From a virus (taxonomy: Duplodnaviria > Heunggongvirae > Uroviricota > Caudoviricetes): 37,385 nt of DNA. The notes under the pieces are model-generated. The model did not search any database. It saw nothing but the letters and a program-made list of their open reading frames with translations, and was not told where the DNA came from. Below are positions 1,099 through 34,765 of this stretch, one piece after another. Each line of letters starts with the position of its first letter. Position 1 is the first letter of the stretch. Position numbers and translations under genes: made by a program. Location of the stretch: IMG/VR virus record IMGVR_UViG_2913123054_000004. One strand, written 5' to 3'.

Positions 1099-2076
1099 TC
1101 ACTTTTTGGTAATGATGTCATCATTTGCTGCTGATTTTTTATCTACAAGTGAGCCTAAAATGTTAAATAAATTTGGAGGTGGCTGCGTTTTATCTGCGAA
1201 TGCAGAATTAGCTGACATATTCCAATCTTTAAACACATCAATAGCATCTTGTTTTGTTGCAGTTGAACCATAAATTTGTAAGAAGACCTCACCAAACATT
1301 AGAGCATGTTGTCTGTCTTTTCTTATGATTGCTTCATGTGTGTATTTTTTTGAATTGTTTAAACAAAAATAAGAAAGCCAAGAAAGTAATGCAACCCCAA
1401 GTAAGCCTCGAGTGAAATAATAAAAAAGTTCAATGGGGGTAGTATCTTTTATATCGATTTTATAAAAAAATGTTAAAAAGGCGGCGCTTATAGATAATAA
1501 TGAAAATAGTATTCCGGCTATCGCCCAATTGTAAGACATTGTAGTGAAGTCTTTATCGTCCTGCTGTAGTTTTGCTTTGACGCCTTGCACATATTCAGGA
1601 ACCTTTTCGTCAATTTTCTTTTGTTGAATTTTGCTTGAAAGTTCTTGGTTTTTAAACTGTAGTTCTTTGTTTTTGATGTGTTGGACTTTTAGCTGTGATA
1701 CTAGTTTTTCTTTACTTTCTATTTCATTTGACAATTCCATTTTCAACTTTTCCATTTGCTCTGAATGAGCGTTATGGTTTTTTTGAAACTCGCGTAGTTT
1801 ATGTTCTAATTCCTCAATTTTTAAAAGGTACTTATCTGCTTCACTGTTTTGCAATGATGTATGGTCAGACATGAAGGGGGCATACTTATATTCTTTTTTA
1901 GAAAAATTTCGACTGTAAGCATCAAATAGCATATCGAATTCATCAAACGCTAGAGAATCCAATAGGTTTTTCAAAGTATTATAGGTGTCATTGGTTAAAT
2001 GTGATTTTAATTCTCCTAATTTAATACTTCTAGACGTGTATTTTTCACTATTGCTTTTATAATCAGAACCACTCAT
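1099..2076 (-). CDS. Hypothetical protein: N-terminal coiled-coil region, two predicted transmembrane helices, C-terminal domain; AT-rich moron
   Basis: 325-aa ORF, markedly AT-rich and K/E/N-rich. Hydrophobic segments IAGILFSLLSISAAFLTFF and LLGVALLSWLSYF. Inserted between int and cI where P2 and 186 have no gene of this size. Confidence 0.6.
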   Translation of the reverse strand: MSGSDYKSNSEKYTSRSIKLGELKSHLTNDTYNTLKNLLDSLAFDEFDMLFDAYSRNFSKKEYKYAPFMSDHTSLQNSEADKYLLKIEELEHKLREFQKNHNAHSEQMEKLKMELSNEIESKEKLVSQLKVQHIKNKELQFKNQELSSKIQQKKIDEKVPEYVQGVKAKLQQDDKDFTTMSYNWAIAGILFSLLSISAAFLTFFYKIDIKDTTPIELFYYFTRGLLGVALLSWLSYFCLNNSKKYTHEAIIRKDRQHALMFGEVFLQIYGSTATKQDAIDVFKDWNMSANSAFADKTQPPPNLFNILGSLVDKKSAANDDIITKK

Positions 2077-2088
2077 TCCAATATCCTT

Positions 2089-3033
2089 TTATAATTCTTC
2101 TATCAGAATAAATTTGCATTTTGCAATAACATCAATATCTGAAATTTTACATTCAAATGATAAATCATTGTCTGAAATTTTTAATCTTCCTACAGGTATT
2201 CTAGTTAGGGTTCGAATGCTCACTTTTCCTTCTATTTTAACAATCCATTTACCATCTGTAATTTCATCGAATGATTGATTACATAGGTATGTTTTTTTTT
2301 CGGTGCTAACAATCAATGGTAATTGGATTGAGTCTGGTAGTAACGCTTTATCAAGCATATAGAAATTTGAATCAAATAGATTCCCGTCAGTAATTTTTTT
2401 GTGAGTAATAGCAATTACATCATTTCTTGCATCGTCAAACTTTGGGCCTTTACCAGTAGTTAGCCACATTAGTGAAGTACCCGTTTCGAGAGCGCACTTA
2501 ATTATCCAGTCTGAAGGAAAAACATCACGCATATATCTTGTGGCTAATGTGCTTTTTGAAATACCTAAGTGATCAGCTAAGGCTTGGCGAGTCTTATAAC
2601 CGTAAGCCCTAACAATTCGCTCTATTGCTTCCTTGCCACCCCGAGAATAATCAATGATGTTTTCATTGTCGAACTTTGGTTGTTTATAGTGAACGTCATG
2701 ATAAGAACCATCTTCGGAGTGTGTTTCAACATGCTGTTCTGGTGAAGGAGATGGCATTTGTTCGTCATCATCTGAACCAAATGCTAGCCATTTAATTGAT
2801 GCTCCTGTTTCCATTGAACAGATAACAATCCAATCTGCAGGAAATGTATCGCGGGCATATCTGTTAGCCATCGTGCTTTGGGAAATACCTAGATGGTTAC
2901 AGAATGCTTGGCGTGACTTGAAGCCATAAGCCATGAGTATCCGCTCGATTACTTTCTGACCACCACGATTTTGTATGACAACGGCTTTCATATCGTCATC
3001 AATATGGCGAAATGTGAATTTTTGAGTTGACAT
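2089..3033 (-). CDS. cI: 186 CI-type immunity repressor carrying two tandem copies of the N-terminal HTH domain
   Basis: 314 aa. Residues ~20-85 and ~125-195 are paralogous (IERILMAYGFKSRQAFCNHLGISQSTMANRY...CSMETGASIKWLAFG versus IERIVRAYGYKTRQALADHLGISKSTLATRY...CALETGTSLMWLTTG), separated by an acidic/Pro linker. C-terminal part resembles the 186 CI oligomerisation domain (WIVKIEGKVSIRTLTRIP...FEC). Confidence 0.8.
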   Translation of the reverse strand: MSTQKFTFRHIDDDMKAVVIQNRGGQKVIERILMAYGFKSRQAFCNHLGISQSTMANRYARDTFPADWIVICSMETGASIKWLAFGSDDDEQMPSPSPEQHVETHSEDGSYHDVHYKQPKFDNENIIDYSRGGKEAIERIVRAYGYKTRQALADHLGISKSTLATRYMRDVFPSDWIIKCALETGTSLMWLTTGKGPKFDDARNDVIAITHKKITDGNLFDSNFYMLDKALLPDSIQLPLIVSTEKKTYLCNQSFDEITDGKWIVKIEGKVSIRTLTRIPVGRLKISDNDLSFECKISDIDVIAKCKFILIEEL

Positions 3034-3121: not shown

Positions 3122-3343
3122 ATGACCCCTAACATTTCAATAACTCTGAATACGCCACACGTCACAATTGAGCGTTATAGCGAACTTACTGGTCTTTCTA
3201 TCGTCACCATCAACGATATGTTGGCTGATGGTCGCATCCCTCGCCATCGCCTTCGGAAAGACAAGAAAAGAGAAAAGGTGATGATCAACCTTGCTGCTCT
3301 TACCGTTGATGCACTTACTGATTGCAATGTTGTATTCAACTAG
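3122..3343 (+). CDS. apl: Apl/Cox-like excisionase and transcriptional regulator
   Basis: 73-aa basic protein as first rightward gene opposite cI. RBS AAAGGAGA upstream. Position equivalent to P2 cox / 186 apl. Confidence 0.6.
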
Positions 3344-4715: not shown

Positions 4716-4949
4716 ATGCGTAATATTGAAACCCTCACGACTAAAACCGGACCGGATGATGCAGGGCTTAATATTTTACTGACAGAGGCTCGTCTGGAAG
4801 AACGCCGGGCAAGGGCTGAAGCAATGGCAGCTCGCCTTGATAGCCTGGCGTGTCATATCACATCCCGCCAGCTAAACCACGTCGAAGCAGCAGAACTACT
4901 GCGTGTAACTGCTGAAGCAATCCAGAACGAAGCGCAGGAGATCCACTAA
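4716..4949 (+). CDS. Hypothetical early protein
   Basis: ATG at 4716 with RBS AGGAGA 7 nt upstream (ORF track uses a TTG at 4710). Stop overlaps the next start (TAATG). Confidence 0.55.
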   Translation: MRNIETLTTKTGPDDAGLNILLTEARLEERRARAEAMAARLDSLACHITSRQLNHVEAAELLRVTAEAIQNEAQEIH

Positions 4950-5176: not shown

Positions 5177-6030
5177 GCACCATCCTGAAATGGGCGGGAA
5201 ATAAAACCGCAATTATGTCCGAACTGAAAAAACACCTTCCTGCTGGCCCGCGACTGGTTGAACCTTTCGCGGGTTCCTGTGCTGTGATGATGGCGACGGA
5301 TTATCCAAGCTATCTGGTTGCGGATATTAATCCTGATTTAATCAACCTCTATAAAAAGGTTGCCGCTGATTGTGAATCGTTTATATCTCGCGCCAGAGTT
5401 TTATTTAAGGAAGCAAACAGGGAGGTGGCTTATTACAACATAAGGCAGGAGTTTAATTACTCAACTGAAATTACTGATTTCATGAAAGCGGTATATTTCC
5501 TGTATCTCAATCGTCACGGTTACCGTGGTTTATGTCGCTATAACAAGAGCGGGCATTTCAACATTCCCTACGGTAATTATAAAAATCCGTATTTCACTGA
5601 AAAAGAAATTCGTGCATTTGCAGTAAAAGCCCTGCGGGCAACGTTTATCTGCGCCAGCTTTGATGAAACGCTGGCGATGTTGAAGGCGGGGGATGTGGTG
5701 TATTGCGATCCGCCTTATGACGGCACGTTTTCCGGTTATCACACTGACGGCTTCACTGAAGATGACCAGTATCACCTGGCATCCGTTCTTGAACATCGAT
5801 CATCTGAAGGTCATCCGGTCATTGTTTCTAACAGTGACACATCCCTGATTCGTTCGCTGTATCGCAATTTCACTCACCACTACATCAAGGCAAAACGCAG
5901 CATCGGCGTGTCGGCTGGCGAGAGTAAATCTGCAACAGAAATCATTGCTGTTTCCGGGGCGCGCTGCTGGGTGGGATTTGATCCTTCGCGTGGCGTGGAT
6001 AGTTCTGCTGTGTACGAGGTGCGTGTATGA
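5173..6030 (+). CDS. dam: DNA adenine methyltransferase (Dam-like, D12 class N6-MTase)
   Basis: 285 aa from ATG 5173 ([11 protein letters not shown]). SAM-binding motif PFAGSCAV and catalytic DPPY (VYCDPPYDG). Start overlaps the upstream stop and the stop overlaps the A start (ATGA). Confidence 0.85.
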
Positions 6031-10047: not shown

Positions 10048-10962
10048 ATGCCATACCAATTGGTAGAGCTTAGCCCCGTAGCTAACGATCTTGAACAGTT
10101 AGGAACCAAAGAGAAGTTTTGGTTCTATTTCTCCGATGACACTGTAAATTTGCAGTTGTTTAAGTACTCTAGGCCAGGTACTGGCGAGCATTGGTCTGAA
10201 AAGTGTGCTGCTGAGTTATGTCATTTGCTTAACATTCCACATGCTAGCTATGATTTGGCGCGATACAATGGTCGATTCGGTGTGGTGACTCAGAATATCA
10301 TTCCATCTGGTTTCCGGATGGTAATGGGAAATGAAGTGCTTCACAGTTCGACATTCGATTATCCTGGGCCTTTACAAGCCGGGGAAAAGCCGGTAAGGGT
10401 CAGAGAACACACTGTCACAAGGGTCTTGGGTTGTTTAGATAGGGAATCTATCAAGCCTCCTCCGAGTGTATATGATCTAACCGGGCTAAATGCAGCAGAT
10501 GTATTTTGTGGATATTTGATGCTCGATGCACTTGTGAGTAATCAAGATCGCCACCATGAAAATTGGGCAATCATGCTTAACAATGAAACTGGTGAGCAGT
10601 TTTTGTGTCCAACATACGATCATGCCGCTAGTTTAGGAAGGGAGATGTTAGATGATGAGCGTAACGAACGGCTTAATACTAAAGATAAAAATCGACAAAT
10701 CCCATGTTTTGTAAGAAAAGCTCGCTCTGAGCTATTCAAAGCAAAAACTGATAAAAAGCCCTTGCTGACTGTTGAAGCATTTCAACATGCAGTTGAAGGG
10801 AGAGTTGCCGCTCGCGACCATTGGTTAGGTAAGTTGAGCGTTTTAACAGAAGATTCCATTACAGATGTGTTTAACCAAGTGCCTTCATCGTGTATATCCG
10901 ACAGTGCACGTAGATTTGCAACGTTAATGGTAATGGAAAATCGCAGAAGGTTACTAGAATGA
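10048..10962 (+). CDS. HipA-family serine/threonine kinase, short form (core kinase domain only)
   Basis: 304 aa. P-loop-like LGTKEKFWF near the N-terminus, catalytic-loop motif DALVSNQDRHHENWAIM, metal-binding LCPTYDHAAS; same order as in HipA/HipT. RBS AGGGA upstream. Confidence 0.8.
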   Translation: MPYQLVELSPVANDLEQLGTKEKFWFYFSDDTVNLQLFKYSRPGTGEHWSEKCAAELCHLLNIPHASYDLARYNGRFGVVTQNIIPSGFRMVMGNEVLHSSTFDYPGPLQAGEKPVRVREHTVTRVLGCLDRESIKPPPSVYDLTGLNAADVFCGYLMLDALVSNQDRHHENWAIMLNNETGEQFLCPTYDHAASLGREMLDDERNERLNTKDKNRQIPCFVRKARSELFKAKTDKKPLLTVEAFQHAVEGRVAARDHWLGKLSVLTEDSITDVFNQVPSSCISDSARRFATLMVMENRRRLLE

Positions 10963-11699
10963 CTAATACAAACTCCGTTTACGTCGCATGGCAGGCACCA
11001 GATACCAGAGACTGGCATGTTGTTGGTAACTTGCAAGAGCGCAAATCGGGGTATGTTTTCAGGTATACCAAAGGTGCTCTTAAATCTTCTAAATTTACAA
11101 AGTTTAGCGGCATGAGTGATGTTCGTGAAACTTATGTATCGGAAGAATTGTTTCCTCTTTTTAAAAATCGCCTTTTATCACCGAGACGTCCAGAGTATCC
11201 GAGTTTCATTAAATGGCTTGGATTTGAAGAAGATAAGGTAAATCCTATCGATATTCTTGCTCGCTCGGGAGGCTTACGAAGCACTGATCAGCTGCAGATT
11301 TTCAAAAAAATTGATTTTGATTCTGATGGTAACTTTGAGCATTTTTTCTTCTTACATGGACTTGGTTACTTGAATAGCTTAGCTAATGCTCGTGTATCTG
11401 AATTGAAACCGGGGCAAATTTTGCGTCTTTGCTTGGATCTTCAAAATGAATACGATGGGGATGCTGTTGTCGTTCGTGCAGATAAACCAGCTGAAATCGT
11501 TGGTTACTGCCCTAGGTATTTAAGTAATGACATCAAGAAGATGTTATTGGATGATCCAAAATCAATCACTTTAACGGTCGAAAAGATTAGTGATGATGCT
11601 CCTCATAACTATCGGTTATTATGTAAATTATCAGGGGTACTAAGCCAAGCCTGTCAATCGACGCTGATTCCTCAAGATGAGTTTGAACCTATTGAGTAA
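10959..11699 (+). CDS. HipS-like (HipA N-terminal subdomain-like) protein with C-terminal HIRAN domain; putative partner/antitoxin of the kinase
   Basis: 246 aa. Start overlaps kinase stop (ATGA). N-terminal half shows HipA N-subdomain-like patterns (EELFPLFKNRLLSPRRP, PIDILARSGGLRSTD). C-terminal ~90 aa has HIRAN hallmarks (LQNEYDGDAVVV...EIVGYCPRYL). Confidence 0.75.
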   Translation: MTNTNSVYVAWQAPDTRDWHVVGNLQERKSGYVFRYTKGALKSSKFTKFSGMSDVRETYVSEELFPLFKNRLLSPRRPEYPSFIKWLGFEEDKVNPIDILARSGGLRSTDQLQIFKKIDFDSDGNFEHFFFLHGLGYLNSLANARVSELKPGQILRLCLDLQNEYDGDAVVVRADKPAEIVGYCPRYLSNDIKKMLLDDPKSITLTVEKISDDAPHNYRLLCKLSGVLSQACQSTLIPQDEFEPIE

Positions 11700-20504: not shown

Positions 20505-21064
20505 CTATTCATTATTTTTTAGTTTTTTGGATAAAAAGAATAGTCCAGCGATACATATGATCAATAGCACTACAGAAATAGAATTGTGAACTGTCCATTT
20601 GTCTGGGTCTATTACTGAAAGCATGAGTAGTATTACTGAAGCTATACCGAGCATTATAGGTTCTACTGCTTCATCAGGTCCTTTTGTTATAAGCATAAAT
20701 GCAAGTTGAAAACCACATGATACTGCGAGTGCTTTAGCAACATAACTTAGGGTTTTGATTTGTCGTATGTGGGCGAAGAATGGCTGTGATGATATATCGA
20801 TTGGCCAGAATGTATCCGCTAGTTCAACTGTACCCTTGAATAAAAGGAACCCTGTTAAGCCGATAAATATAAGACGTTGACAAAAAAATTGAATTCTATC
20901 TGCAGATTTTTCAGTTTCGGTTTTTTTTCGTCTTCAGGAGTTTTGAGTTCTTCCACCTTATATTTGAAAATATTCTTAATGTCTTTTTTAAACTGATTGC
21001 TTCCAAAGAACGCAATTGCAATGGCTGCGATTAATAAGGATGTTATTACGGATGTAGGCGTCAT
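20505..21064 (-). pseudogene. Membrane-protein moron split by a frameshift at a homopolymer tract (A8 at 20921-20928 or A7 at 20882-20888 on the coding strand)
   Basis: Two minus-strand ORFs (20855-21064 and 20505-20696); the downstream frame stays open back to 20933. One extra base in either A-tract would fuse them into ~186 codons with about five hydrophobic helices. Confidence 0.5.
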
Positions 21065-22971: not shown

Positions 22972-23569
22972 TCTGCTGCCATCGGGGTCAACTTCACTGG
23001 AGCGCCGACTGGCGCAAACGTGCAGCGGGATTTCTGATCTGCAGGTGCCGCTGCGTGACTTGTGGAATCCGGCTACCTGCCCGGTCAGCTTCCTGCCTTA
23101 TCTCGCCTGGGCGTTCTCTGTGGATCGCTGGGACGAGGACTGGACGGAAAGCGTCAAACGCCAGGTGGTGAAGGATGCTTTTTATATTCATCAGCACAAA
23201 GGAACCACCAGTGCCGTGCGGCGGGTGGTGGAACCGTTCGGATTCCTGATCCGCATTATTGAGTGGTGGCAGACCGGAGAAACACCGGGCACGTTTCGTC
23301 TGGATATCGGCGTGCAGGACCAGGGCATCACTGAAGATACCTATCTGGAACTTGAGCGACTGATAAGCGATGCCAAACCATGTAGCCGTCACATGGTCGG
23401 CATGTCCATCAACCTGCAGACCAGCGGCCCGCATTGGGTGGGAGCCGCCAGCTATCTTGGCGAAGAAATCACGATCTATCCGTATATCAACGAAACAATT
23501 ATTTCCGGCGGCACCGCGCATGAAGGCGGGGCGGTCCATGTTATTGACACAATGAGAGTGAATCCATGA
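22964..23569 (+). CDS. I: Baseplate/tail protein I (P2 gpI-like)
   Basis: 201 aa between J and the tail fibre gene. Confidence 0.8.
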   Translation: MNSLLPSGSTSLERRLAQTCSGISDLQVPLRDLWNPATCPVSFLPYLAWAFSVDRWDEDWTESVKRQVVKDAFYIHQHKGTTSAVRRVVEPFGFLIRIIEWWQTGETPGTFRLDIGVQDQGITEDTYLELERLISDAKPCSRHMVGMSINLQTSGPHWVGAASYLGEEITIYPYINETIISGGTAHEGGAVHVIDTMRVNP

Positions 23570-24942
23570 GCACAAAATTTTATACCCTGCTGACGGATAT
23601 TGGCGCGGCGAAACTTGCCAGCGCCGCCGCGCTCGGTGTGCCTGTAAAAATTACCCATATGGCGGTCGGCGATGGCGGCGGAACATTGCCAGCGCCGGAC
23701 GCAAAGCAGACGGCACTGGTAAATGAGAAACGCCGGGCTGCGCTGAATATGCTCTATATCGACCCGCAGAACAGCAGCCAGATTATTGCTGAACAGGTGA
23801 TCCCTGAAAACGAGGGCGGTTGGTGGATACGTGAAGTGGGCCTGTTTGATGAGTTCGGGGCATTGATTGCCGTGGGCAACTGCCCGGAAAGCTATAAGCC
23901 GCAACTGGCTGAAGGCAGCGGGCGTACCCAGACCGTGCGTATGGTGCTGATAACCAGCAGCACGGACAATATCACCCTGAAAATCGACCCTGCTGTAGTG
24001 CTGGCAACCCGCAAGTATGTGAATGATAAGGTACTGGAGCTGAAGGTGTACGTGGATGACCTGATGGCAAAACATCTTGCCGCACAGGACCCACATTCAC
24101 AGTATGCACCCAAAGAAAGTCCGACGTTTACCGGAACACCCAAAGCGCCAACGCCAGCGGCGGGGAATAATACTACGCAGGTTGCGACCACCGCGTTTGT
24201 ACAGGCGGCACTGCTCACCCTGATTGACGGTGCACCAGCCACGCTGGACACGCTGAAAGAAATTGCAGCTGCTATTAATAATGACCCGAAATTCAGTACC
24301 ACCATTAACAATGCGCTGGCACTCAAAGCACCGCTGTCGAGTCCGGCACTCACCGGAACGCCAACAGCACCTACTGCGGCACAGTCGGTCAACAATACAC
24401 AGATTGCCACCACGGCATTTGTGAAATCGGTGATTGCAGCAATGGTAGGCTCTGCACCTGCGGCACTGGATACGCTGAACGAACTGGCGGCGGCACTGGG
24501 GAATGACCCGAATTTTGCCACGACAATGCTTAATGCGCTGTCAGGTAAACAACCGCTGGACAATACGCTGACTAATTTGAGTGGAAAGGATGTTGCTGGT
24601 CTTCTCGCATTCCTGGGTTTGAAAAACGCCGCACAACGCGACGTTGGGACTGGCACAAATCAAATTCCTGACATGAACGCTTTTAGCTCTGGCTCTGGCT
24701 GGCAGAAATTACCTGGAGGCAGGATTCTGCAGTGGCGGGGAATAGACAATGGCCCTGGGGATATTACAAGCCCGCTACCCATTCCATTTCCAAATCGCGC
24801 AATAGGATGGGCAATTACGTCCGATTATGTACCAGGGTCAGGCGGAGTTGGCACAATAGCCGGGACGTGTACTGCAACGAATATCATTTCACGAAATACA
24901 AATGTGAGCACTGGTGGTAGCGCTATCGTAGTGGGGGAATAG
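23566..24942 (+). CDS. H: Tail fibre protein (P2 gpH-like) with internal tandem repeats and a variable C-terminal domain
   Basis: 458 aa; conserved N-terminus; two ~73-aa tandem repeats (SPTFTGTPKAPT... / SPALTGTPTAPT...); Gly-rich C-terminal domain. Confidence 0.85.
   Translation: MSTKFYTLLTDIGAAKLASAAALGVPVKITHMAVGDGGGTLPAPDAKQTALVNEKRRAALNMLYIDPQNSSQIIAEQVIPENEGGWWIREVGLFDEFGALIAVGNCPESYKPQLAEGSGRTQTVRMVLITSSTDNITLKIDPAVVLATRKYVNDKVLELKVYVDDLMAKHLAAQDPHSQYAPKESPTFTGTPKAPTPAAGNNTTQVATTAFVQAALLTLIDGAPATLDTLKEIAAAINNDPKFSTTINNALALKAPLSSPALTGTPTAPTAAQSVNNTQIATTAFVKSVIAAMVGSAPAALDTLNELAAALGNDPNFATTMLNALSGKQPLDNTLTNLSGKDVAGLLAFLGLKNAAQRDVGTGTNQIPDMNAFSSGSGWQKLPGGRILQWRGIDNGPGDITSPLPIPFPNRAIGWAITSDYVPGSGGVGTIAGTCTATNIISRNTNVSTGGSAIVVGE
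24118..24558 (+). repeat. Two tandem ~219-bp coding repeats inside the tail fibre gene
   Basis: Repeat 1 24118-24336 and repeat 2 24340-24558, diverged at DNA level but clearly paralogous at protein level. Confidence 0.5.
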
Positions 24943-24944
24943 GT

Positions 24945-25367
24945 ATGAGAACGTATCGCTATGACGCAATAACAAACGCATTTTATCCGTATGAGCTACA
25001 GAATGAGTATGAACAAGCAGGGATGTGGCCGGAGTCGGGCCATGATGTGAATGAAGATATTTTTCAGCAATTCATCAACCCTCCCGCAGGTAAGGTGCGT
25101 GTTGCCGGGAATGACGGAATGCCAGCATGGGGGGATATTCCGCCACCGGCTCATGATGAACTCGTTGCGGTAGCAGATGTGAAAAAAGCAGCACTATTGG
25201 CAGAAGCGTCAGTCGTTATCGCCCCGCTGGCTGATGCGCAGGCGGGCGGTTATATCGATGACGCTGACGTGCCGCGACTGGCAGCATGGCAGAAATATCG
25301 CTATGCACTGACGAAAGTGGATACATCAACTGCGCCGGATATCACCTGGCCGCTGCAACCAGTGTAG
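24945..25367 (+). CDS. G: Tail fibre assembly chaperone (P2 gpG-like)
   Basis: 140 aa immediately after H. Confidence 0.8.
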   Translation: MRTYRYDAITNAFYPYELQNEYEQAGMWPESGHDVNEDIFQQFINPPAGKVRVAGNDGMPAWGDIPPPAHDELVAVADVKKAALLAEASVVIAPLADAQAGGYIDDADVPRLAAWQKYRYALTKVDTSTAPDITWPLQPV

Positions 25368-25471
25368 AAATCTTTAGTGTAAATCGTCAAAGATGCTGGC
25401 GACTTGATGATCGATGACGGTATCAGTGATGATAATTTACAGGTTGTACGGGAATAATACATGACAATTTG

Positions 25472-25513
25472 AATGGGGTATAATAGATAAATAATACATC
25501 ATTATACCCCATT
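25472..25513 (+). terminator. Hairpin (13-bp perfect inverted repeat) after the tail fibre genes, probable terminator
   Basis: AATGGGGTATAAT, 16-nt loop, ATTATACCCCATT, followed by TTCG. Confidence 0.4.
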
Positions 25514-25551
25514 TTCGCTATTATCTATTGGCAAAAATATTCTTAATGCCT

Positions 25552-26589
25552 TTATATTTGCCTACCTCCTAATAAAATGTGTGAGGTGTATTTGTTGGTT
25601 TTCAATAACCTTGCTACAATTATGCAGGTGGTTACAATAAGGAAAACAAATGAAGGGGTTATGATGAGGTTATATATGAGTGGATTTTCGCATAGGTTAT
25701 TAATGTTCACGTATGCCTCTATTCTGTAAAAAATAAACGACGAGATTATATAGATGGGAAAGGTGTAAGTACCGACAAAGGATGTGGCTCGTATAAATAA
25801 ATTGTTTTTCGTTGATAAAAATGTATAAGCATATATAAGCGATATGCTTCCGGCGAAGCCAATGAAGTAGCGAAATATAATAATGAATGATTGATGCCAG
25901 AAATCAACATTCTCATATGTCATTTTAGATATGTAAATATAATACTCTCTATTCCATAGGAGAAGCATGCCAATCCATGTTAATACGGATAACACACCAA
26001 TTTTGTGCCTATTTCTAGAGGCAAAATCTAAAATGCGATGGGCGGATATACCAGCGATAAAATAAGGGGCCATAAATTTAATTTTGTCCATATTCCAATC
26101 ATCTCCATATGCAAGGGATATACTAAATATCAGTAAATAAAGCACCACAGAATATTGTTTGCTTATTGAGTGACAAATAGTATAAACAATAGATACTGCA
26201 AAGAGTGCAGAAAGGAACCAGAAGGCGTAGATGGCTCCATATCTAATATTTATTAAATTTATATCTCTTCCCACAAAAATGGATTCAGCAATGAACCATG
26301 CAATGGATGGGATTATTAACTGCATGAATTTTCTTTTGATAATTGATGATGGTTTTCTCTTGAGAGAAAAATAGAAAAGATAGCCGCTAAGCAGCATAAA
26401 AAATGGCATGTGGAAGCTGTAAATGGTAATAAATAATGGGTTGTCAAAAAAATTTAAACTATCTTTTTTTACAAACTGAATTGAATGGCCCCACACGACA
26501 AAAATTATAGCTAATCCTTTCATTGAGTCTATAATGGAATTTCGAGTGCTGGGTGTCTCTGTTATAATAAGATGTGGTTCGTTTTTCAT
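25552..26589 (-). CDS. Acyltransferase family 3 membrane protein (O-antigen/LPS acetylase-like), probable lysogenic conversion gene
   Basis: 345 aa, ~10 hydrophobic segments, AT-rich; family-typical motifs GLAIIFVVWGHS and HMPFFMLLSGYLF near the N-terminus. Confidence 0.8.
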   Translation of the reverse strand: MKNEPHLIITETPSTRNSIIDSMKGLAIIFVVWGHSIQFVKKDSLNFFDNPLFITIYSFHMPFFMLLSGYLFYFSLKRKPSSIIKRKFMQLIIPSIAWFIAESIFVGRDINLINIRYGAIYAFWFLSALFAVSIVYTICHSISKQYSVVLYLLIFSISLAYGDDWNMDKIKFMAPYFIAGISAHRILDFASRNRHKIGVLSVLTWIGMLLLWNREYYIYISKMTYENVDFWHQSFIIIFRYFIGFAGSISLIYAYTFLSTKNNLFIRATSFVGTYTFPIYIISSFIFYRIEAYVNINNLCENPLIYNLIITPSFVFLIVTTCIIVARLLKTNKYTSHILLGGRQI

Positions 26590-26920
26590 TTAATTTGTCA
26601 ACTTTAGATTGAGTGGTATAAGAATTGCAACTAAACACTCGTGAGCTAATATTTACATATATTATCAATGATCATTAATTCAATCAATTAGGAATTGCTT
26701 TATTGTATGTAACAGATTCTCATTTTGGGGTAGATGCTACTATTGCTGTCATCACACCATAAATTAAGTCCATTCATATTAGATATCTTGGGTTGTTCCG
26801 GGAAGTACACGGCCACTATCAGTAAATGTGTGGTAAGAGCTTCACCAGTCGAACGTTTTTGAAAATACAGAGATAATGGCCAACAGGCATCATCCCCGGT
26901 TTTTATTTAGGGGGATGCTC

Positions 26921-27232
26921 ATGCTTATTGGCTATGTACGTGTATCAACAAATGACCAGAACACTGATTTGCAACGCAATGCGCTGAACTGCGCGGGATG
27001 TGCGCGGATTTTTGAGGATAAAATCAGTGGCACTAAGTCCGACAGGCCGGGACTGGCTGCAGCTCGCGCCAAAGGCAGAGTAGGTGGACGCCGTCCTAAG
27101 TTGACCACCGAACAGTGGGCACAGATTGGACGTTTACTCGAGGCCGGAGAATCAAGACAGCGTATTGCACTGATTTTTGATGTGGGTGTTTCCACCATTT
27201 ATAGAAAATTTCCGGCAAATAAGAGCAATTAA
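26921..27232 (+). pseudogene. Hin/Gin/Pin-type serine DNA invertase with in-frame internal deletion of most of the catalytic domain
   Basis: 103 aa: N-terminus [22 protein letters not shown]...DRPGL joins directly to the C-terminal HTH region ([20 protein letters not shown]...[10 protein letters not shown]). About 85 central residues are absent relative to Hin (~190 aa). Confidence 0.75.
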
Positions 27233-27289
27233 TCTCCCTGAATCAGCATTATTTTGATTATCCCTGCAAGCAGACAAATACCGTCATTT

Positions 27290-27307
27290 TGTGTGAATAA
27301 CGGTACA
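27290..27307. promoter_or_regulatory. Ogr-type late-promoter element (TGT-N12-ACA) upstream of FI
   Basis: TGTGTGAATAACGGTACA, centred ~85 bp upstream of the FI start codon. Confidence 0.5.
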
Positions 27308-27383
27308 ACTGCGCTTAGCTGTTTGTCAGGCACAATCACTTCAACATAGGGCGAAGCCTAATCCAATCAGGAGGTTCGCCGCT

Positions 27384-28556
27384 ATGGCTCAGGATTACCA
27401 CCACGGAGTGCGCGTTGTTGAAGTCAACGAAGGCACCCGATCCATTACCACGGTGAGCACCGCCATCGTGGGTATGGTCTGCACGGGCGATGATGCCGAT
27501 GCAAAAATGTTTCCTCTTAATAAACCCGTGCTGATCACTGATGTGCTGACTGCCAGCGGTAAAGCGGGTGAGTCCGGCACGCTGGCTCGTTCGCTGGATG
27601 CCATCGCTGACCAGGCAAAACCCGTGACCGTTGTTGTGCGTGTGCCCCAGGGGGAAACGGAAGAAGAAACCACAACCAATATCATCGGCGCAGTGACCGC
27701 CGAGGGTAAAAAAACAGGCATGAAAGCCCTGTTATCTGCTCAGTCACAGCTCGGCGTTAAACCGCGCATTCTCGGCGTGCCAGGTCAAGATAACAAAGCC
27801 GTTGCGACTGAGCTGCTGAGTGTGGCGCAAAGCCTGCGTGGGTTTGCCTACCTGTCAGCATATGGCTGCAAGACGGTGCAGGAGGCGATCACTTACCGTG
27901 AAAACTTCAGCCAGCGTGAAGGGATGCTGATCTGGCCGGATTTTATCAGCTGGGACACGGTGCTGAATGCCGAAGCAACGGCATACGCCACCGCGCGTGC
28001 GCTTGGCCTGCGCGCCAAAATTGACGAGCAGACCGGATGGCACAAAAGCCTGTCCAACGTGGGCGTGAACGGTGTCACCGGAATTTCTGCTGATGTGTTC
28101 TGGGATCTGCAGGACCCGGCAACCGATGCAGGTCTGCTTAACCAGAACGACGTCACCACCCTTATCCGCAAGGACGGTTTCCGCTTCTGGGGTTCCCGCT
28201 GTCTGAGTGATGATCCGCTCTTTGCCTTCGAAAACTACACCCGCACGGCGCAGGTGCTGATGGACACAATGGCAGAAGCGCACATGTGGGCGGTGGATAA
28301 ACCGCTGAATCCGTCACTGGCCCGCGACATTATCGAGGGTATCCGTGCCAAAATGCGCAGCCTGGTCAGTCAGGGCTATCTCATTGGTGGTGATTGCTGG
28401 CTGGACGAGTCGGTGAACGATAAAGACACGCTGAAAGCCGGGAAGCTCACCATCGACTACGACTACACGCCAGTGCCGCCACTTGAAAATCTGATGCTGC
28501 GCCAGCGCATCACCGATCAGTACCTGGTGAATTTCGCCAGCCAGGTCAGCGCGTAA
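27384..28556 (+). CDS. FI: Tail sheath protein (P2 gpFI-like)
   Basis: 390 aa; first gene of the FI-FII-E-T-U-D tail operon. Confidence 0.9.
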
Positions 28557-34530: not shown

Positions 34531-34610
34531 CGCTGCCGCCATTTTGTCGCCATCGTTAAAAAACAGTGCTTCTAACATCATGATTTTAAACGGCATAAAT
34601 TTCAGGCAAC

Positions 34611-34653
34611 AAAAAACCCATCAACCTTGAACCAAAATGGCGGGGTTGATGGG
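34611..34653 (-). terminator. Hairpin plus T-run on the minus strand downstream of ybjL (probable ybjL terminator, near the prophage right junction)
   Basis: Minus strand reads CCCATCAACC, 17-nt loop, GGTTGATGGG, TTTTTT. Confidence 0.4.
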
Positions 34654-34765
34654 CTCCACAAAATGGGGACATCAAAGAAAAGCAGTGGCACTAATTAAGA
34701 CTGATGCCCCAAAGAAAAGTTCGCCGATTGTACAAAAAAATTTCATTTTCAGGGCAACTTCAGTT

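Follow-up and report, generated by a model that had tools for sequence, protein, structure and literature searches.

The window examined here (the whole stretch of DNA that was analysed, 37,385 nucleotides; IMG/VR record IMGVR_UViG_2913123054_000004) is a complete P2-like prophage of 37.4 kb, colinear with Escherichia phage Cartapus (Peduoviridae, Elveevirus; NC_070909) at 92-96% DNA identity. Its tail fibre locus comprises, in order, the fibre gene H, the fibre assembly chaperone gene G, a hairpin, an AT3 acyltransferase gene convergent to G, an internally deleted DNA invertase gene, and the tail sheath gene FI (Table 1). A sequence-only reading had described this arrangement as the remnant of an invertible tail fibre switch, and synteny with Cartapus, with E. 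coli prophages and with 55 IMG/VR relatives bears the description out: the locus is most probably a non-functional remnant of a Gin/Cin-type switch of which the invertible segment has been replaced by an imported block.

Crossover sites and the replaced segment

Intact relatives of the invertase were collected from 80 loci, in 55 of which (IMG/VR) both crossover sites, L and R, could be paired. The gene order in Cartapus, in many E. coli prophages and in these 55 loci is Hc–siteL–Hv–G–G'–Hv'–siteR–invertase–FI, where Hc and Hv are the constant and variable parts of H and G'–Hv' is the alternate fibre module. The intact L of the paired loci, within H, is TTCTC(A/G)CATACC TT GGTTTGGGAGAA, and the intact R, 67 bp upstream of the invertase start, is TTCTCCCAAACC AA CGTTTA(T/A)GAAAA (TTCTCCCAAACC AA CGTTTATGAAAA in Cartapus); only two of these loci depart from TT as the L core and AA as the R core. 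Both gixL and gixR of phage Mu conform to the same half-site pattern, and the invertase of Cartapus aligns over its entire 188 aa with Gin of Mu (PDB 3uj3; E = 8e-93).

Homology of the window to switch-bearing relatives (Cartapus and a locus in Logan SRR16011185, L093) ends at 24620/24621 and restarts exactly at 26852, the first base of the R core. Homology to Klebsiella phage Kp4860-7 likewise ends at 24620/24621, and restarts at 27383, that is, at FI. Along Cartapus, colinearity of the window is broken only at 24676-26851 and by a gap of 246 bp in the invertase gene. The P2/Elveevirus-type constant part of H runs to about 24613, and the C-terminal 109 aa of the protein (Gp53-like_C) are imported. 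No remnant of G' or Hv', such as a promoterless alternate fibre C-terminus or chaperone on the opposite strand, was found between 25368 and 26845 by tblastn with 444 segment proteins.

Table 1 Positions of the features of the tail fibre locus in the window
Feature	Position	Strand	Description
Tail fibre gene H	23566..24942	+	458 aa; Pfam Phage_tail_fib 1.7e-64, Gp53-like_C
Imported block	24589..26858		fibre tip, chaperone G, hairpin, and AT3 gene with the DNA upstream of it
Left crossover-site homologue L	24602..24627	+	TTCTCGCATTCC / TG / GGTTTGAAAAAC, inside H
Tail fibre assembly chaperone G	24945..25367	+	140 aa; Pfam Caudo_TAP 1.1e-31
Hairpin between convergent G and AT3 genes	25471..25514		13-bp perfect stem
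AT3 acyltransferase	25552..26589	-	345 aa; PF01757
Hybrid right site R	26840..26865	+	donor-derived CTTCACCAGTCG / AA / CGTTTTTGAAAA
Invertase pseudogene	26921..27232	+	103 aa from homologous ATG; longest open reading frame 26876-27232
Tail sheath gene FI	27384..28556	+	annotation of relatives; right anchor of G-FI cargo hotspot

Half-sites were scored with a matrix built from 23 distinct halves (training minimum 9.4 bits). The L homologue lies in the fibre gene at the boundary of its constant and variable parts. Its outer half, TTCTCGCATTCC, has one change relative to the relatives and scores 12.16 bits, ranking second among the 74,748 12-mers of the window; its inner half, GGTTTGAAAAAC, is of the donor type described below and scores 6.19 bits, below the training minimum, and its core is TG, against TT in the relatives. 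The full site nevertheless scores 18.35 bits, by far the best in the window (the next scores 5.6). The core of R, AA at 26852-26853, lies 69 bp upstream of the ATG of the invertase remnant, as it does in the relatives, and the outer half that follows it, CGTTTTTGAAAA at 26854-26865, is one base off the R outer half of the 55 intact relatives, CGTTTA(T/A)GAAAA, and scores 11.05 bits (rank 4 of the 74,748). The inner half of R, CTTCACCAGTCG, is random-like (-6.35 bits; p = 0.07) and agrees with the L inner half, as an inverted repeat, at 5 of 12 positions. The full R of the window scores 4.7 bits, compared with 35.4 and 30.6 bits for L and R of Cartapus. L and R of the window hence do not make a pair: R has its outer half only, the cores are TG and AA, and the inner halves form no inverted repeat.

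The hix/gix-like half-site that had been noticed upstream of the remnant from the sequence alone does align formally to the R of the relatives, one base away from where it had been placed, and CGTTTTTGAAAA is on this alignment a genuine relic, the outer half of the original R. The inverted partner that had been proposed inside H is also a real sequence (GGTTTGAAAAACG at 24616-24628, likewise one base to the left of the position given, the inner half of the L homologue) and part of a full site, but its pairing with the outer half of R was wrong, as the true partner of the L inner half would be the R inner half, which is absent. The inverted 12-mer match itself, with two mismatches, does not exceed what chance gives (the window has 5 such matches, where 2.3 +/- 1.5 would be expected), and the position of GGTTTGAAAAACG is significant through synteny alone, not as a bare sequence match. 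Two other candidates were attributed to chance: an orphan half-site inside the block, which would have marked a quasi-site inversion and the best instance of which (25597-25608, 9.8 bits) lies within the intact acyltransferase frame and is without the invariant G at position 8, and a 16-nt inverted repeat between 24620-24635 and 26573-26588 at the acyltransferase start, which matches at 13 of 16 positions and is one among 25 similar pairs.

A near-perfect L site (TTCTCGCATACC TT GGTTTAGGGGAA, 5603-5628) persists inside H of Kp4860-7, an Elveevirus that has neither an invertase nor cargo between G and FI. The L-type sequence doubles as a coding motif, and it survives there because it encodes the conserved LLAYLGLGE. 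A diverged P2-like switch (L256, IMGVR_UViG_2693429677_000003, about 1305-1330 and 3128-3153) has inner halves CAATTGAAATCG, encoding QLKS, instead of the usual GGTTTGGGAGAA. It was considered as a further hybrid R site and rejected, being an intact switch; as its unusual inner halves are perfect inverted repeats of each other, a site cannot be dismissed on a low matrix score alone.

The switch of the window, as far as its sequence tells, cannot invert either in cis or in trans, because it has no enzyme, a single R half-site, cores of TG and AA, and no alternate module. Inversion would join Hc to about ten codons of non-coding DNA followed by a stop. Since nothing can invert, the phage makes one fixed fibre specificity. 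Intact relatives of the locus share the enzyme, the 26-bp sites, the 2-bp core and the layout with the Fis-dependent serine invertase systems of Mu (G segment, Gin), P1 (C segment, Cin), e14 (P segment, Pin) and Salmonella (Hin), whereas the window, without a catalytic domain, with R halved, cores mismatched and no alternate fibres, is a fossil of such a system. The intact Elveevirus switches (Cartapus, the E. coli LF82 prophage and many others) have the same backbone, flanking genes, and outer halves of L and R, but hold G'–Hv', full TT/AA sites and an invertase of 188 aa, all of which are missing from the window.

The invertase remnant and its decay

With the ATG at 26921 taken as its start, the remnant corresponds to residues 1-45 and 128-185 of the Cartapus invertase. 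By alignment with this protein and with Mu Gin (3uj3), 82 residues (46-127 of 188), or 246 bp, are missing in frame, in good agreement with the loss of about 85 central residues read from the sequence alone. Copies of a GG(G/A)CTG repeat flank the ends of the deletion, with the junction at a GGACTG hexamer (27050-27055), and the loss of codons 46-127 would have occurred by slippage between these repeats, separately from the replacement of the segment. As had also been read, the catalytic S9 is kept in YVRVSTNDQ, the same as in Gin and Cartapus, and so is the C-terminal HTH_7 domain (58.5 bits, residues 71-114 of the long open reading frame), while the catalytic core is gone: the Resolvase Pfam match spans only positions 2-77 of a profile of 145, and the losses include helix B, the Arg/Asp region of the active site and helix E, which serves tetramerisation. 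In Hin, helix B contacts the enhancer and is needed for activity (PMC3798978), and helix-E residues are reported to be needed for activity and for tetramer formation (PMC4513852). From the geometry of hin, where the enhancer is spaced 99 bp (PMC3798978), a Fis enhancer would be predicted near 26950-27016, upstream of the deletion.

The remnant of the window has a premature stop three codons ahead of that of its relatives, and the substitution E28A. Sister copies in the carrier lineage (see below) have Q18stop and R19C in one group and six amino-acid substitutions in another, and non-synonymous changes are about as frequent as synonymous ones among the carrier remnants (3:4 and 7:6). The gene is thus a pseudogene that decays freely and independently among sister prophages. 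An exact look-up of the remnant protein found no record, and the pattern of the deletion junction had no match in 185,579 species-representative genomes.

The identical 246-bp in-frame deletion, at GGGCTG repeats, was found in L093 (Logan SRR16011185, 5001-5321), where the invertible segment is intact and the sites are perfect. The two remnant alleles differ at 20 of 312 bases (6%), 16 of the differences being synonymous and 4 non-synonymous. Because they are so diverged, and mostly at synonymous sites, the deletion probably arose independently in L093, as a recurrent slippage event at a deletion hotspot, and therefore it does not date the cargo swap. L093 was rejected on the same grounds as proof that locking preceded replacement. 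The sequence-only reading had the switch locked and then partly replaced; both events are seen, and either may have come first. In two Salmonella enterica assemblies (L094 and L096), a Mu-like prophage with an internally deleted invertase of 117 aa carries its fibre segment in opposite orientations, which reflects either inversion in trans or an inversion older than the invertase deletion.

Source of the block and origin of its joints

An exact look-up of the G protein located the G-acyltransferase pair, at the same spacing, in E. coli assembly GCA_003027815.1 (L283); the G protein is identical in L283 and L279-L282. Positions 24589-26858 of the window are 98.6% identical to 4645-6914 of L283, which is a non-P2 myovirus prophage (its baseplate protein J shares 62-65% of its residues with the J proteins of Erwinia phage RF1 and Yersinia phage vB_YenM_P744) that ends in fibre (288 aa), G and acyltransferase genes, adjoining thrS. 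Acyltransferase homologues of ~50% identity occupy the same terminal position, convergent to the fibre and chaperone genes, in related prophages (Citrobacter, Kosakonia and a metagenome); for this reason the fibre-G-acyltransferase architecture is taken as native to phages of the L283 type, the presumed donor type. The fibre tip and G of the window are 57% and 45% identical to those of the L256 switch, and many promoterless Hv' open reading frames show about 55% identity to the tip; both belong to module families that are also found in working switches. The acyltransferase does hold the position of G'–Hv', as had been read from the sequence, but the replacement goes further: the expressed tip and G were also imported, in one block. 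Within the block, an island of 32% GC (about 25420-26790, compared with about 54% in the flanks) takes in the AT3 gene. The hairpin has fold energies of -18.9 and -22.6 kcal/mol on the two strands (z = -5.0 on both) and is a probable bidirectional terminator.

Besides the window, the composite of P2-type backbone and imported block is carried by E. coli 2014C-3075 and several assemblies and metagenomes. It is found in 1 of 5,426 finished E. coli genomes and is absent from 50,697 phage records and from the GTDB species representatives; all seven sequenced carriers have it in the same orientation. Among the P2-type carriers, identity to the window is 99.2-99.3% in the imported block, about 94.5% in Hc and about 94.8% in FI, and the tract of high identity, from about 24475 to about 27000, includes both joints. 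Because the block is so much more similar than the backbone and the tract spans both joints, the composite module, once formed, has moved between diverged P2-like backbones by homologous recombination in the conserved flanking genes.

Three-way alignments of window, switch-bearing relatives and donor place both joints at the crossover cores. At the left joint, where the donor fibre gene bears an L-like motif of its own (TTCTCCAATACC TT GGTTTGAAAACC), the window is of P2 type up to the core and of donor type beyond it. At the right joint, the donor sequence, Q, is ATTCACCAATCG AA CCTTTGATGGAG (L283 6896-6921), and the window is of donor type up to AA and of P2 type from AA on; Q and R share 11 of 14 central bases and the AA core. 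By the site matrix Q is among the best-scoring 0.2% of 26-mers, yet its score is -4.5 bits. The possibility that Q is a prophage end was rejected, as 215 bp of element-specific DNA lie beyond it. The proposed course of events starts from an ancestor of the order Hc–[site L]–Hv–G–G'–Hv'–[site R]–invertase, in which the DNA between the crossover cores would have been swapped for the tip-G-hairpin-AT3 block of an unrelated myovirus prophage, with the left joint at the L core and the right joint at the AA core of R, joined to the weak quasi-site of the donor. If an invertase acted at the joint, it could have been that of the phage itself, before its death, or a co-resident one in trans.

A survey of R sites in about 100 further viral contigs yielded two other lineages with foreign DNA abutting the R core. 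In the first, represented by two contigs (L026, 4919-4944, and L270), the order is H (with a Gly-rich tip), G, a terminator, GTGCGAGTATTG / AA / CGTTTAAGAAAA and an intact invertase, with no G'–Hv'; homology to Cartapus restarts at the same base as in the window, and the left side is unrelated (-22.5 bits). In the second (L038, IMGVR_UViG_2554235297_000013, 150-200 and 4900-4945), V-W-J-I-Hc is inverted and the invertible segment is lost. Its two junctions, TTATGCTAAACG / TA / GGTATGTGAGAA and TTCCAAGTAACC / TA / CGTTTATGAAAA, join sequence of gene S to the L outer half and the continuation of S to the R outer half; both have TA cores, and together they rebuild the S reading frame (…YAKR/RLLG…). 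Such a pattern is the mark that recombination at a quasi-site within gene S leaves; it is seen in a single contig, for which misassembly is possible. Iida and Hiestand-Nauer reportedly observed, in 1986 and 1987 and on laboratory plasmids, that Cin recombines a true crossover site with weakly similar quasi-cix sites of the same central dinucleotide, and that a hybrid site results. The junctions of the window R, L026 and L038 look alike in this respect, except that they are natural sequences in which a role of the enzyme is inferred.

On account of these parallels and of the behaviour of Cin at quasi-sites, the balance tips, not strongly, towards a DNA invertase having made at least the right joint by cutting at the cores. 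The fuller proposal, that the crossover sites were capture points at which invertase exchange, at L and at an AA-core quasi-site, moved a cassette of tip, chaperone and receptor-modifying enzyme from an unrelated myovirus and destroyed the switch in doing so, is put forward tentatively, at somewhat worse than even chances. Several observations weigh against an invertase-made joint or against other parts of the reading. The score of Q is far below those of real sites (24-35 bits), and its central identity to R would fit short-homology or illegitimate recombination as well. Neither the reciprocal junction, TTCTCCCAAACC AA CCTTTGATGGAG, nor the donor flank has a match in IMG/VR or the JGI metagenomes. 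The left joint sits in a conserved fibre motif that is kept without an invertase in Kp4860-7, and so says little about mechanism; moreover, all P2-type carriers have TG at the L core, against TT in either presumed parent. L283 itself is a contemporary relative rather than the actual donor, and the direction of transfer is deduced from where the architecture is common. A promoter scan for the acyltransferase gene, which the lysogen would probably express, gave nothing better than shuffled sequences. Two changes at the left crossover point, 24611 A>T (Tyr>Phe) and 24615 T>G, are common to all P2-type carriers, whereas both presumed parental types have A and T there; they may have arisen through the exchange or have come from the true donor.

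A serious rival, with a chance that falls only a little short of even, accepts the same anatomy and attributes the joints to short-homology or illegitimate recombination by host or phage recombinases, the coincidence with the cores reflecting islands of similarity. Donor and recipient share about 20 similar bases at L, in the fibre motif, besides those at R; the invertase is dead in this lineage; and the quasi-site scores poorly on the matrix. Relaxed homologous recombination between phages and prophages is also documented (PMC3945230). Against this rival, the change of parentage falls on the 2-bp core at R, a second, independent lineage (L026 and L270) breaks at the same base with a wholly unrelated left side and no homology to exploit, and L038 shows core-to-core events at quasi-sites in this group of phages.

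There are three other alternatives. The first holds that the switch still operates in trans through a co-resident Gin/Pin-type invertase, as in E. coli EC958. A prophage with a truncated cis invertase has been reported to invert in trans (PMC4134206), the Salmonella Mu-like prophage described above occurs in both orientations despite its deleted invertase, and L is still recognisable as a full site. This is nevertheless highly improbable here, given an R without its inner half, TG and AA cores that are not complementary, the absence of any Hv' or G' to express, an Hc fusion that would stop early, and the single orientation of the seven sequenced carriers. There is also a slim chance that the remnant, comprising the N-terminal 45 aa and the helix-turn-helix domain, has been kept as a small DNA-binding protein that occupies the half-sites still present and, for example, regulates the acyltransferase promoter or blocks foreign invertases. 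Its deletion is in frame with HTH_7 intact, the same deletion occurs on two alleles with mostly synonymous differences (16 against 4), and it is divergent to the acyltransferase gene at a distance of 330 bp; but the nonsense and missense changes in different copies and their ratios point to decay, and the deep divergence, rich in synonymous changes, is more readily put down to recent deletions that struck functional alleles independently. Hardly credible is a cassette of invertase fragment and acyltransferase inserted independently at the G-FI hotspot, never having been part of a fibre switch here. The locus is indeed a hotspot of mixed cargo in which invertases are frequent, and some Elveeviruses, such as Kp4860-7, are invertase-less. 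However, 26852-28000 is a continuous 94% match to switch-bearing relatives that extends over the outer half-site and the intergenic DNA downstream and preserves the distance to the start codon, the invertases of relatives are intact at the same position, and the acyltransferase block has a separate, identifiable origin.

Cargo, setting and significance

The acyltransferase has an intact reading frame and matches PF01757 with 92.7 bits (cut-off 31) over profile positions 3-324 of 326; it matches the NolL-like equivalog with 68 bits, far below the cut-off of 425, and the PHROG O-acetyltransferases weakly. An alignment of 9 homologues has 79 invariant columns, H34 and an FHMP..SG motif being among them, and only three residues differ between carriers. 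One homologue adjoins gtrB/gtrA/gtrC-like genes, and others directly follow receptor-binding genes. The AT3 acyltransferase is absent from the 50,697 deposited phage genomes; a profile scan of genome contigs returned only Bacteroidota and Firmicutes genes of 25-33% identity with no useful context, and PADLOC gave no match for it. From its family and context, the enzyme most likely O-acetylates a surface polysaccharide, such as the O antigen or another receptor glycan, which would change the serotype or block superinfection. The earlier description of it as a lysogenic-conversion gene fits the AT3 family and the gene context, and the function is deduced from these rather than demonstrated.

Phage O-antigen acetyltransferases, such as Oac of Shigella phage Sf6, which is of the AT3 family, resemble the gene of the window in being AT3-only, about 340 aa long, low in GC and located beside receptor-binding genes. 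They differ in that the window enzyme has only its weak PHROG match to O-acetyltransferases.

The gene between G and FI is compositionally deviant, and an Elveevirus with the locus empty (Kp4860-7) exists. The G-FI (Z/fun) locus of P2-like phages is a mixed-purpose cargo hotspot, often with an invertase (bioRxiv 10.1101/2024.10.15.618418). The acyltransferase gene shares its location with the usual cargo of this hotspot and is, similarly, an AT-rich foreign gene on the strand opposite to the tail genes; it differs in being an AT3 acyltransferase that arrived together with a fibre tip and chaperone. Prophage Phi4 of E. coli EC958 has 26-bp crossover sites and a truncated invertase, and its inversion presumably occurs in trans (PMC4134206). 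Its own invertase is truncated like that of the window, but its sites and alternate modules are intact and its segment still inverts, whereas in the window the substrate itself has been destroyed.

The host flank of the prophage (ybjL-ybjM-grxA) has only 91.6% identity to E. coli, which indicates that the host is an Escherichia species other than coli. Because a RybB small RNA gene (34608-34686, minus strand, 106 bits) lies just beyond the right end of the prophage, the integration site adjoins rybB/ybjL. An Rfam search gave no match within the switch locus. An adjacent pair of genes at 10048-11699 (plus strand), located where P2 has its 'old/tin' hotspot, from cos to the portal gene, matches the PADLOC candidate defence proteins PDC-M03A (E = 2e-122) and PDC-M03B (E = 7e-93; HIRAN domain). 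The region 1099-3033 (minus strand) encodes a CI-type repressor of 314 aa with two Phage_CI_repr helix-turn-helix stretches, noticeably longer than that of Cartapus, and, between the integrase and the repressor, an open reading frame of 325 aa without a family. Two small hydrophobic open reading frames (63 and 69 aa) lie on the opposite strand at 20505-21064 (minus strand), in a gap between S and V without homology to Cartapus; this gap is another small cargo site, and L038 carries an open reading frame of 393 aa in the same place.

Taken by itself, a host-range switch that has decayed and holds a moron at an established hotspot is a case of ordinary decay, with unusually clean joints, and truncated invertases in prophage switches are already known (PMC4134206). 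What is new is the particular cargo, the identifiable donor, and joints that are precise to the base at the crossover cores. With a traceable donor and joints that can be read to the base at the cleavage points of the invertase, the locus offers a testable case for the old idea that inversion sites drive the acquisition of fibre modules; if capture by the invertase is real, the core-precise junctions of L026, L270 and L038 would make it a way in which, in nature, modules are repeatedly exchanged and switches collapse. For annotation, 'Recombinase family protein' calls of ~105 aa beside P2 tail genes are pseudogenes, and an L-like site inside H is no evidence of an active switch. Of the readings offered here, invertase capture is the only one of wider significance, and it can be tested. 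The locus is also of use in showing a receptor-binding module that passes from one phage family to another in company with a putative receptor-modifying enzyme, which bears on the prediction of host range and serotype conversion.

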